Assembly (NCBI GenBank): GCA_963710755.1
Contig: CAVQBK010000003.1
Location: 1-64,000 of the forward strand
Direction: 5' to 3'
DNA length: 64,000 bases
Origin: an uncultured bacterium
GTDB lineage: Bacteria > Oederibacteriota > JAAXVQ01 > JAUVAV01
Below, piece by piece: positions 41,472 to 41,885 of the stretch. A program made the position numbers and the translations under genes. The notes below the pieces were generated by a model. The model searched no databases. It was not told the DNA's origin and was given only the letters and a program-made list of their open reading frames with translations. The stretch's first letter is position 1; every line of letters starts with the position of its first letter.

Positions 41472-41847
41472 GTCTCTGGTGTGCAACGGATTGGCGGGGG
41501 GACACAGACAGGGACGTCTGGTGCCGCTTTCACTACAACTGGGTTAAAGGCCTTCTCCGGCGAGCTGGTTTTAACCCGCCCAGTCTTAGGCTTTGGCCGG
41601 TGCTGTTCGGCCGCTCCCCTCTGCCGTTGCAACAAGTTCGTACTCTGGACTCCAGGACTTATAGGAACTGCCGCGTCAGGCCATGCCGCGCTTGCCGGCA
41701 GCACGCCCGGTGGTTACGAAGCCGGTGCGTTGGGATGGGAAGTCCTGAAACCTGTCGCTGTCCTTGGGACAGAACGACGGTCTCCCGCAGGTTGTGGTTA
41801 AAGGCCTATCGCCCCTCCTCCCCGGGCCATGGCCTGCTGCCGGAGAC
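41472..41847 (+). ncRNA. Candidate large structured non-coding RNA (~376 nt), family unrecognised
   Basis: End-closing helix, four helical domains rich in G-U pairs, dedicated terminator, and no credible plus-strand CDS. Confidence 0.7.
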
Positions 41848-41849
41848 AC

Positions 41850-41885
41850 AAACGCCTCTCTCTGTAAAGAGGGAGGCGTTTTTTT
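41850..41885 (+). terminator. Intrinsic terminator
   Basis: AAACGCCTCTCTCT-GTAA-AGAGGGAGGCG followed by 7 T. Confidence 0.88.

Follow-up and report, generated by a model that had tools for sequence, protein, structure and literature searches.

The 64,000-nucleotide stretch of an uncultured bacterium analysed here (the window) contains, at positions 41465-41885 of the plus strand, an element that we read, with slightly better than even confidence and from comparison with a single homologue, as a real, selected and single-copy non-coding RNA gene of about 390-430 nt. The predicted RNA would comprise a small 5′ hairpin, a domain 1 of variable length, a three-way domain 2, a further hairpin (hairpin C), a domain 3 and its own Rho-independent terminator. 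We infer both its transcription from the plus strand and its function. The family to which it belongs is probably missing from Rfam and, in the data searched, probably limited to a single genus within an uncultured lineage of spore-forming soil bacteria. No described family fits the element, and we therefore treat it as a candidate new RNA family of a known general kind. The original prediction had proposed an independently transcribed large non-coding RNA, possibly of a new class. Its first part is partly supported by the non-coding character of the region, the absence of a matching Rfam family, a conserved terminator of its own and differences between the two copies that mostly leave base pairs intact; two sequences from a single genus, however, cannot establish a new class, because covariation statistics are meaningless with two sequences.

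Conservation and non-coding character of the element

A BLAST search of 61 genomes with a 451-nt query returned four matches and revealed one true homologue, located on a 2-kb contig of G001, a genome of the same genus (E 2e-64, 73% identity over query positions 4-445 of 451). Two of the matches, in G009 and G050, were short (32-52 nt, E 0.002-0.008), fell on the C-rich/CCATGGCC part of the query and were taken as chance. Between the window and G001, 294 of 395 aligned columns of the whole element are identical (74%), and 169 of 203 (83%) in its 3′ half (41645-41849); these figures are pairwise identities, and the “mean column identity” values printed in the alignment (83% and 90%) measure something else. 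Along the locus, identity is 81% in the DNA of an adjacent small protein gene, falls to 43% in the spacer next to that gene (41381-41427), and rises to 84% in a block upstream of the RNA (41428-41471) and to 90% over positions 41472-41521. The interior of domain 1 (41522-41620) is only 36% identical and carries a 28-nt insertion or deletion. Identity then returns to 84% in domain 2, 79% in hairpin C and domain 3, and 75% in the terminator segment, and drops to 33% in the DNA past the terminator. The element is thus conserved as a unit, including its terminator, in one congener, with DNA that cannot be aligned on both sides. An identity block of about 430 nt with such sharp edges suggests that it is under constraint.

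Wider searches retrieved the same pair of sequences. The original prediction had proposed collecting homologues with nhmmer; run with a two-sequence profile over the DNA beside the small gene of 15 genomes, it recovered only the element's own genome and G001. A covariance model of the 3′ half (R1, 57 pairs) was run over the 15 genomes of the class, in which the order coincides with the class, and over 99 genomes of the phylum, and gave full-length matches only in the element's own genome and in G001. Matches of R1 in genus g7 (15.9-19.9 bits) covered model positions 26-99 only, the stronger of them (in G007) lying inside an open frame of 447 aa, and were rejected. An exact-pattern scan of a species-representative genome collection found only the G001 contig, and five metagenomic contigs sharing 21-31 nt with the query in an exact-pattern scan were dismissed as chance. 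In three runs of soil DNA, all of the same study, contigs cover positions 41505-41785 with one single-base deletion and bring no new information. Collections of plasmid, phage and viral contigs showed no similarity to the element.

The region is non-coding. The open reading frames (ORFs) of the plus strand had been dismissed in the original prediction as spurious, and the comparison with G001 agrees: gaps of 3, 2, 1, 3, 2, 1, 28, 1 and 1 nt break every frame, and substitutions are spread over the three codon positions without periodicity (31/34/36). Codon-like conservation of these ORFs, named beforehand as an observation that would speak against an RNA, was not found between the two copies. 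Searches with tblastx yielded only fragments of 10-52 aa, equally across the six frames. Four ORFs of 75-155 aa within the element matched no Pfam family, and the longest of them (155 aa) matched no NCBIfam family and had no relative of near length in a protein collection of 5.8 billion clusters.

We compared the locus with known RNA families using the 4227 covariance models of Rfam 15. At gathering thresholds, a cmscan of the whole window reported only RNase P RNA (class A, 6382-6721, plus strand, 194.5 bits). The element itself thus matched no family, whether 6S RNA, signal recognition particle (SRP) RNA, tmRNA, intron, riboswitch or large “ornate” RNA. A permissive scan of both strands of positions 41300-42050 (E<=10) gave five sub-threshold matches only, all leaning on the terminator hairpin; the best were anti-hemB (22 bits, gathering threshold 49.5) and PyrR (22.3 bits, gathering threshold 54), both carried by the terminator. 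An identity with RNase P RNA or tmRNA had been excluded for want of their signature motifs, in agreement with the lack of a match of RF00010 and RF00023 at the locus; the genuine tmRNA of the genome is at C2:14814-15168 (203 bits). A resemblance of the 5′ end to 6S RNA, also noted in the original prediction, is not supported, because the genuine 6S RNA of the genome lies on another contig (C13:486976-487155, 79.5 bits); RF00013 gave no match at the locus at E<=10.

Predicted architecture and its preservation

Each base pair of the helices proposed in the original prediction was checked by script in the window and in G001. All of these helices are present in the window at the positions first assigned to them, and most of them reappear in the minimum free energy (MFE) fold of positions 41460-41890, whose last feature is a 14-bp hairpin with seven U behind it. 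The proposed architecture nevertheless needs correction at its outermost helix. This closing helix (41472-81/41838-47) forms 10 of 10 pairs in the window, including three G-U pairs, but only 6 of 10 in G001. The pairing of GTCTCC (41780-85) with GGAGAC (41842-47), by contrast, is complete in both genomes (6/6) and closes a separate domain 3.

The 5′ part of the revised architecture, all of whose features are given for the plus strand, begins with a conserved upstream block (41428-41464), a T-run followed by CATTTAAGTNATCCGG, which is presumed to be the promoter or the 5′ end region. A 5′ hairpin of 4 bp (41465-41482), found by RNAalifold, forms all four pairs in both genomes, one G-U pair of the window being A-U in G001. 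Domain 1 (41482-41631) has a variable interior and is closed by two helices. The outer one, P1a (TGCAACGG/CCGTTGCA, 41482-89/41624-31), forms 8/8 pairs in the window and 7/8 in G001. The inner one, P1b (GGGGGGA/TCCCCTC, 41496-502/41615-21), forms 7/7 in the window; five of its pairs are common to both genomes, one of them with a change from G-U to A-U, while in G001 two inner pairs are lost and two outer ones are gained by way of a 3-nt insertion. Within the domain, the P2 hairpin CAGAC-AGGGAC-GTCTG (41505-41520) is identical in the two genomes and occurs in both single-sequence folds. The P3 hairpin (TGGGTTAAAG/TTTTAACCCG, 41540-41578) changes from G-C to C-G and from U-G to U-A in its outer stem, and from C-G to A-U and twice from G-U to G-C in its inner stem (window to G001), with its loop sequence, TTCTCCGGCRAGC, kept. 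The third proposed hairpin, GGCCGG/TCGGCC (41595-41612), is present in the window and predicted in the MFE fold, but belongs to the 28 nt that are missing from G001.

Domain 2 (41653-41747) is closed by CAGGACTT/AAGTCCTG (41653-60/41740-47), which pairs 8/8 in both genomes with a change from U-A to C-G, and contains stem A (41668-41701) and stem B (41703-41730), each identical in both genomes. Stem B has a loop of 11 nt, of which all but the first, GGTTACGAAG, are invariant; a pseudoknot between this loop and the linker 41637-42 was considered and discarded, as it is absent from G001. Hairpin C (41754-41778) keeps 9/9 pairs in both genomes and differs in its loop and bulge. Domain 3 (41780-41847) consists of the GTCTCC/GGAGAC closure, an 11-bp G-U-rich helix, in which three G-U pairs of the window stand side by side, and two apical hairpins of 3 bp each, and forms 23/23 pairs in both genomes. 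Its changes from the window to G001 are two of U-G to C-G, one of A-U to G-U, one of C-G to U-A and a further U-G to C-G. One of the apical hairpins carries the invariant loop CCTCCCC (41817-23) on a stem that covaries. The 13-bp G-U-rich helix first proposed here (41787-99/41825-37) does form 13/13 pairs in the window, but one of its last two pairs is lost in G001: the helix is conserved over 11 bp and one further pair, and a competing CCU/GGG apical stem covaries instead. The RNA ends in an intrinsic terminator (41850-41885), identified by a terminator scan and in the MFE fold, with a 14-bp stem, a GTAA loop and seven T. This terminator, too, had been proposed originally, and it is kept in G001, where 14/14 pairs are maintained through changes from C-G to U-A, U-A to C-G and U-G to U-A, followed by six T.

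Across the whole RNA, six both-sided and 11 one-sided pair changes between the window and G001 leave the pair intact. P1a loses one pair at its outer end and P1b loses two at its inner end, three in all. The both-sided changes are in the outer stem of P3 (G-C to C-G), its inner stem (C-G to A-U), the domain 2 closure (U-A to C-G), the apical part of domain 3 (C-G to U-A) and, twice, the terminator. All 11 one-sided changes are swaps between a G-U and a Watson-Crick pair. For the 3′ half we curated a structure of 57 pairs from the RNAalifold result and the originally proposed domain 2 closure: 114 of 114 cells pair, a share that drops to 29-45% once the partners are shifted by 1-3 columns. Differences fall in 7 of 114 paired columns and in 37 of 99 unpaired ones; the corresponding Fisher p of 1.5e-8 is biased and overstates the case, because the curated structure was fitted to both sequences. 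Folded alone, G001 adopts the same P1a/P1b, P2, domain 2 closure, stem A, hairpin C, domain 3 and terminator. On the plus strand, the element folds with an MFE of -187.3 kcal/mol (z -2.6; 1 of 100 shuffles did equally well), and thermodynamics alone are weak support for a structure. The real support comes, as far as two sequences can speak, from a homologue that keeps most of the helices, several of them through what look like compensatory changes.

Genomic setting and the apparent absence of SRP

The element occurs once in the 3.44-Mb genome, in a gap of about 650-715 nt between two genes. Both are on the minus strand, as the original prediction had stated and as the ORFs of the window and their Pfam annotation confirm. 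One neighbour is a small conserved protein gene (40907-41380), followed downstream by a SpoIID gene; the other encodes a GAF-HisKA-HATPase histidine kinase (42033-43319). The position of the kinase lies beyond the end of the G001 contig. A role as leader or riboswitch of a plus-strand gene found no support, as no gene of the same strand follows downstream and the next one (42033-43319) is on the minus strand, and nothing in the neighbourhood pointed to a mobile element or a cis-regulated plus-strand gene.

The small protein matches no Pfam or NCBIfam family. It is listed as an ORF of 157 aa, but its relatives align only from residue 14-23, and from its probable start at ATG 41314, which has a GGGGG Shine-Dalgarno sequence on its 5′ side, it would be about 135 aa long. 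Its gene is kept in 15/15 genomes of the class and in 0/26 other genomes searched. The RNA element and the kinase adjoin it only in this genus, and the DNA beside it is a synteny break-point among genera. G001 has, between the promoter of the small gene and the RNA, about 80 extra bases that are absent from the window (L002, about 555-640, read on the minus strand) and hold a perfect 17-bp inverted repeat, TATATCTGGATTATCTA/TAGATAATCCAGATATA. Elsewhere in the window, an ORF of 748 aa (37382-39628, plus strand) without a Pfam or NCBIfam family is convergent with SpoIID and shares 58 nt with the 3′ end of that gene. Contig C1 of genome G000, an assembly without any N, holds an open frame of 6830 codons that starts in its first bases (C1:2-20491, plus strand).

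We also considered whether the element could be the SRP RNA of this lineage and rejected this identity: no SRP model matches the locus, the genome has no detected Ffh or FtsY, and the element is absent from the other 13 genomes of the class. More broadly, the 15 genomes of the class (G000-G014) apparently contain neither Ffh nor FtsY nor SRP RNA. Neither RF01854 nor RF00169 matched any of the 15, with 143 of the 174-514 first-look candidates per genome scored for RF00169, and PF00448, the SRP54 GTPase domain, matched none of them, three being rated 100% complete. In the element's own genome, RF01857 and TIGR00959 (Ffh) gave no match, the Ffh of a relative from the phylum reached a best E of 0.049 by tblastn, and the neighbourhood of dnaX held no Rfam match. 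A search for the helix-8 motif of SRP RNA produced chance matches only, and the one inspected lies inside a coding frame. In other classes of the phylum, 5/5 genomes have Ffh and two further SRP54-type GTPases. Phylum-wide, PF00448 matches 79 of 99 genomes; it is weak (E>1e-5) or absent in families f1, f2, f4, f11, f14 and f16, and in families f5 and f8 a genome has either a weak match or one to two strong ones, at about 1e-42. SRP is usually stated to be conserved in all organisms, as in a passage of PMC7844537, and our literature search found no report of an SRP-less lineage. The apparent absence runs against that statement and may matter more than the RNA element itself.

Proposed function, alternatives and related RNAs

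Of the readings considered, a stand-alone regulatory RNA has the best support. By analogy with known regulators, the element may be a trans-acting riboregulator, the likeliest mode of action but one that we put forward only tentatively. Two invariant apical loops sit on covarying stems, CCUCCCC in domain 3 (41817-23) and UUCUCCGGCRAGC in P3. In the proposed mechanism, the exposed C-rich sequences of these loops, CCUCCCC and UUCUCCGG, would pair with the Shine-Dalgarno regions of target mRNAs and block the initiation of their translation, in the manner of RNAIII and the Rsa RNAs of Staphylococcus aureus, and the variable 5′ domain would act as a stabilising or accessory module. The motif CTCC occurs six times, against 2.6-2.8 expected, an excess of about twofold that 25 and 18 of 500 shuffles reach.

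Several results weigh against a conserved plus-strand RNA with this function. Only two sequences are at hand, both from one genus, and at this number of sequences a shuffle control (243 of 500) is uninformative. The z-scores are better for the minus-strand folds (-4.9 and -3.8) than for those of the plus strand (-2.6 and -2.8). When the window MFE structure is transferred to G001, 22 changed pairs are kept, 23 broken and 23 gapped over the whole RNA on the plus strand (minus strand: 18 kept, 23 broken), and the MFE of the 3′ half alone gives 6 kept and 12 broken; part of this breakage stems from a MAFFT misalignment of the 3′ strand of P1. A scan for sigma-70-type promoters upstream of the element recognised none, and sigma-54 and sporulation-sigma consensus sequences, fitted there by eye, did not match either. 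Three loops were compared with 3701 putative translation-initiation regions in a crude duplex scan, which gave no informative target and did not single out the neighbouring genes. Finally, almost any Shine-Dalgarno sequence would find a partner in a C-rich loop, and the mechanism is therefore not specific evidence.

The choice of strand is the point at which an alternative comes closest. The functional strand could be the minus strand, the element then being a long structured leader of the small protein and SpoIID pair or a 3′ untranslated region of the kinase, with the hairpin at 41850-85 as the kinase terminator. None of 100 shuffles was as good as either of the minus-strand folds, RNAalifold on that strand finds 109 pairs with six both-sided changes, in both genomes the small protein gene comes after the element when the minus strand is read, and the terminator stem is nearly symmetrical and stands 147 nt beyond the stop codon of the kinase. 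Yet the tail of this hairpin reads TTTGTGT in the window and TTTGGGT in G001 on the minus strand, against seven and six T on the plus strand, and all 11 one-sided changes, together with ten G-U pairs of the window, would turn into A-C mismatches if the minus strand were read; the three adjacent G-U pairs of the 11-bp domain 3 helix speak in the same direction. RNAalifold, too, gives a somewhat better energy and covariation term on the plus strand (-127.6/-7.3 against -116.2/-5.4). The original argument that the G-U pairs work on the plus strand only thus holds for the pairs themselves, while folding energies do not separate the strands. As for a leader, the small gene is found throughout the class but has the element beside it in this genus only. 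It seems, judging from its sequence, to have its own conserved extended -10 element (TGTTATGAT, minus strand, 41360-41352) besides its Shine-Dalgarno sequence, and the extra bases in G001 separate its promoter from the element. We hold the plus strand, with fair assurance, to be the functional one, and a minus-strand function to be improbable.

Other readings accept a plus-strand RNA and assign it a different task, or deny it any. An RNA that sequesters a protein, for example a CsrA sponge acting through GGA motifs or a 6S-like decoy, would be in keeping with the AGGGAC displayed in the loop of the invariant P2 hairpin, with the many conserved unpaired nucleotides and with the CsrA gene of the genome (C3:471059-471214, 80.7 bits). 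GGA occurs 11 times in the window, against 7.2+/-2.1 expected (reached by 32 of 500 shuffles), and 14 times in G001, against 9.3+/-2.2 (18 of 500). This enrichment is marginal, however, and places only one or two GGA in hairpin loops, clearly so only in P2; no CsrB-like or 6S family matches, and the known CsrA antagonist in Bacillus is a protein, FliW, which further counts against a sponge. We consider a CsrA-type sponge a weaker alternative than a riboregulator, and a sequestering RNA as a whole rather unlikely. To about the same low degree, the element might be the founding member, in an apparently SRP-less lineage, of a new class of large RNAs that work through their tertiary structure, comparable to OLE, ROOL, GOLLD or raiA: three independently closed domains with invariant junction and loop nucleotides would then serve a non-antisense function such as ligand or protein binding, catalysis or scaffolding. 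Its multi-domain architecture with junctions, its covarying stems with fixed loops, its long invariant unpaired stretches (GGUUACGAAG, which forms the last 10 nt of the stem B loop; GGAUUGGC, which separates P1a from P1b; and UGGGAU) and its peripheral hairpins, which come and go as in many structured RNAs, would suit such a role. Against it, long-range tertiary pairing is unsupported, the stem B loop pseudoknot being absent from G001, two sequences say nothing on tertiary covariation, and a distribution over one genus is unusual for such large RNA classes. Least probable, in our estimate, is that there is no functional RNA and that the two genomes share DNA of recent common origin, a decaying gene or a mobile remnant, that happens to fold. 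The occurrence in two closely related genomes only, the modest z-scores of the single-sequence folds and the synteny break-point beside the small gene would be expected in that case. It is harder to reconcile with an identity that falls from 74-84% inside the element to 33-43% directly outside on both sides, with changed positions that avoid stems or compensate, and with a terminator kept by two double changes; nor do the ORFs of the element bear a trace of a protein family, and neither similarity to plasmids, phages or viruses nor a repeat copy in the genome was found.

Should the element prove to be a real RNA gene, it would add an RNA gene of about 0.4 kb with several domains to a deep branch of uncultured spore-formers without described regulatory RNAs, and the C-rich-loop design of staphylococci and bacilli may recur far outside them. 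The narrow range limits the present value of the element, and two sequences are not yet enough to submit a family whose covariation is significant.

Among known systems, 6S RNA is likewise a structured RNA of housekeeping size with paired ends; the element is about twice as long, and its predicted fold is branched, unlike the rod-like interrupted helix with a central bubble of 6S RNA. OLE, ROOL, GOLLD, HEARO and raiA share with it a length of 200-800 nt, a multi-domain build and a function that is not obvious from context, but none of their Rfam models matches. These classes span many genera, in contrast to the single genus of the element, which presumably does not lie beside the genes associated with them. 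The atypically large S. aureus small RNA RsaC offers a parallel in layout: it is described in part of PMC6765141 as having a 5′ part of variable length and a structurally independent, highly conserved 3′ part, which recalls the variable domain 1 (36% identity, 28-nt insertion or deletion) and the 83% identical 3′ half found here. There is no homology between the two, and the element has no plus-strand gene upstream, both of its neighbours being on the minus strand. The closest likeness in design is to RNAIII and the Rsa RNAs. The element shows no sequence or covariance-model similarity to them, has one or two C-rich loops, belongs to another phylum-level lineage and has no conserved encoded peptide. 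According to sections of PMC2790875, UCCC motifs in hairpin loops of RNAIII bind Shine-Dalgarno sequences, and most Rsa RNAs carry a UCCC motif in their most conserved regions. Like these RNAs, the element has several hairpins and independent termination, with a 5′ hairpin as well as a classical terminator at its 3′ end, and it appears to present a conserved C-rich UCCC motif in an apical loop, here the CCUCCCC of positions 41817-23 that is predicted to be unpaired.

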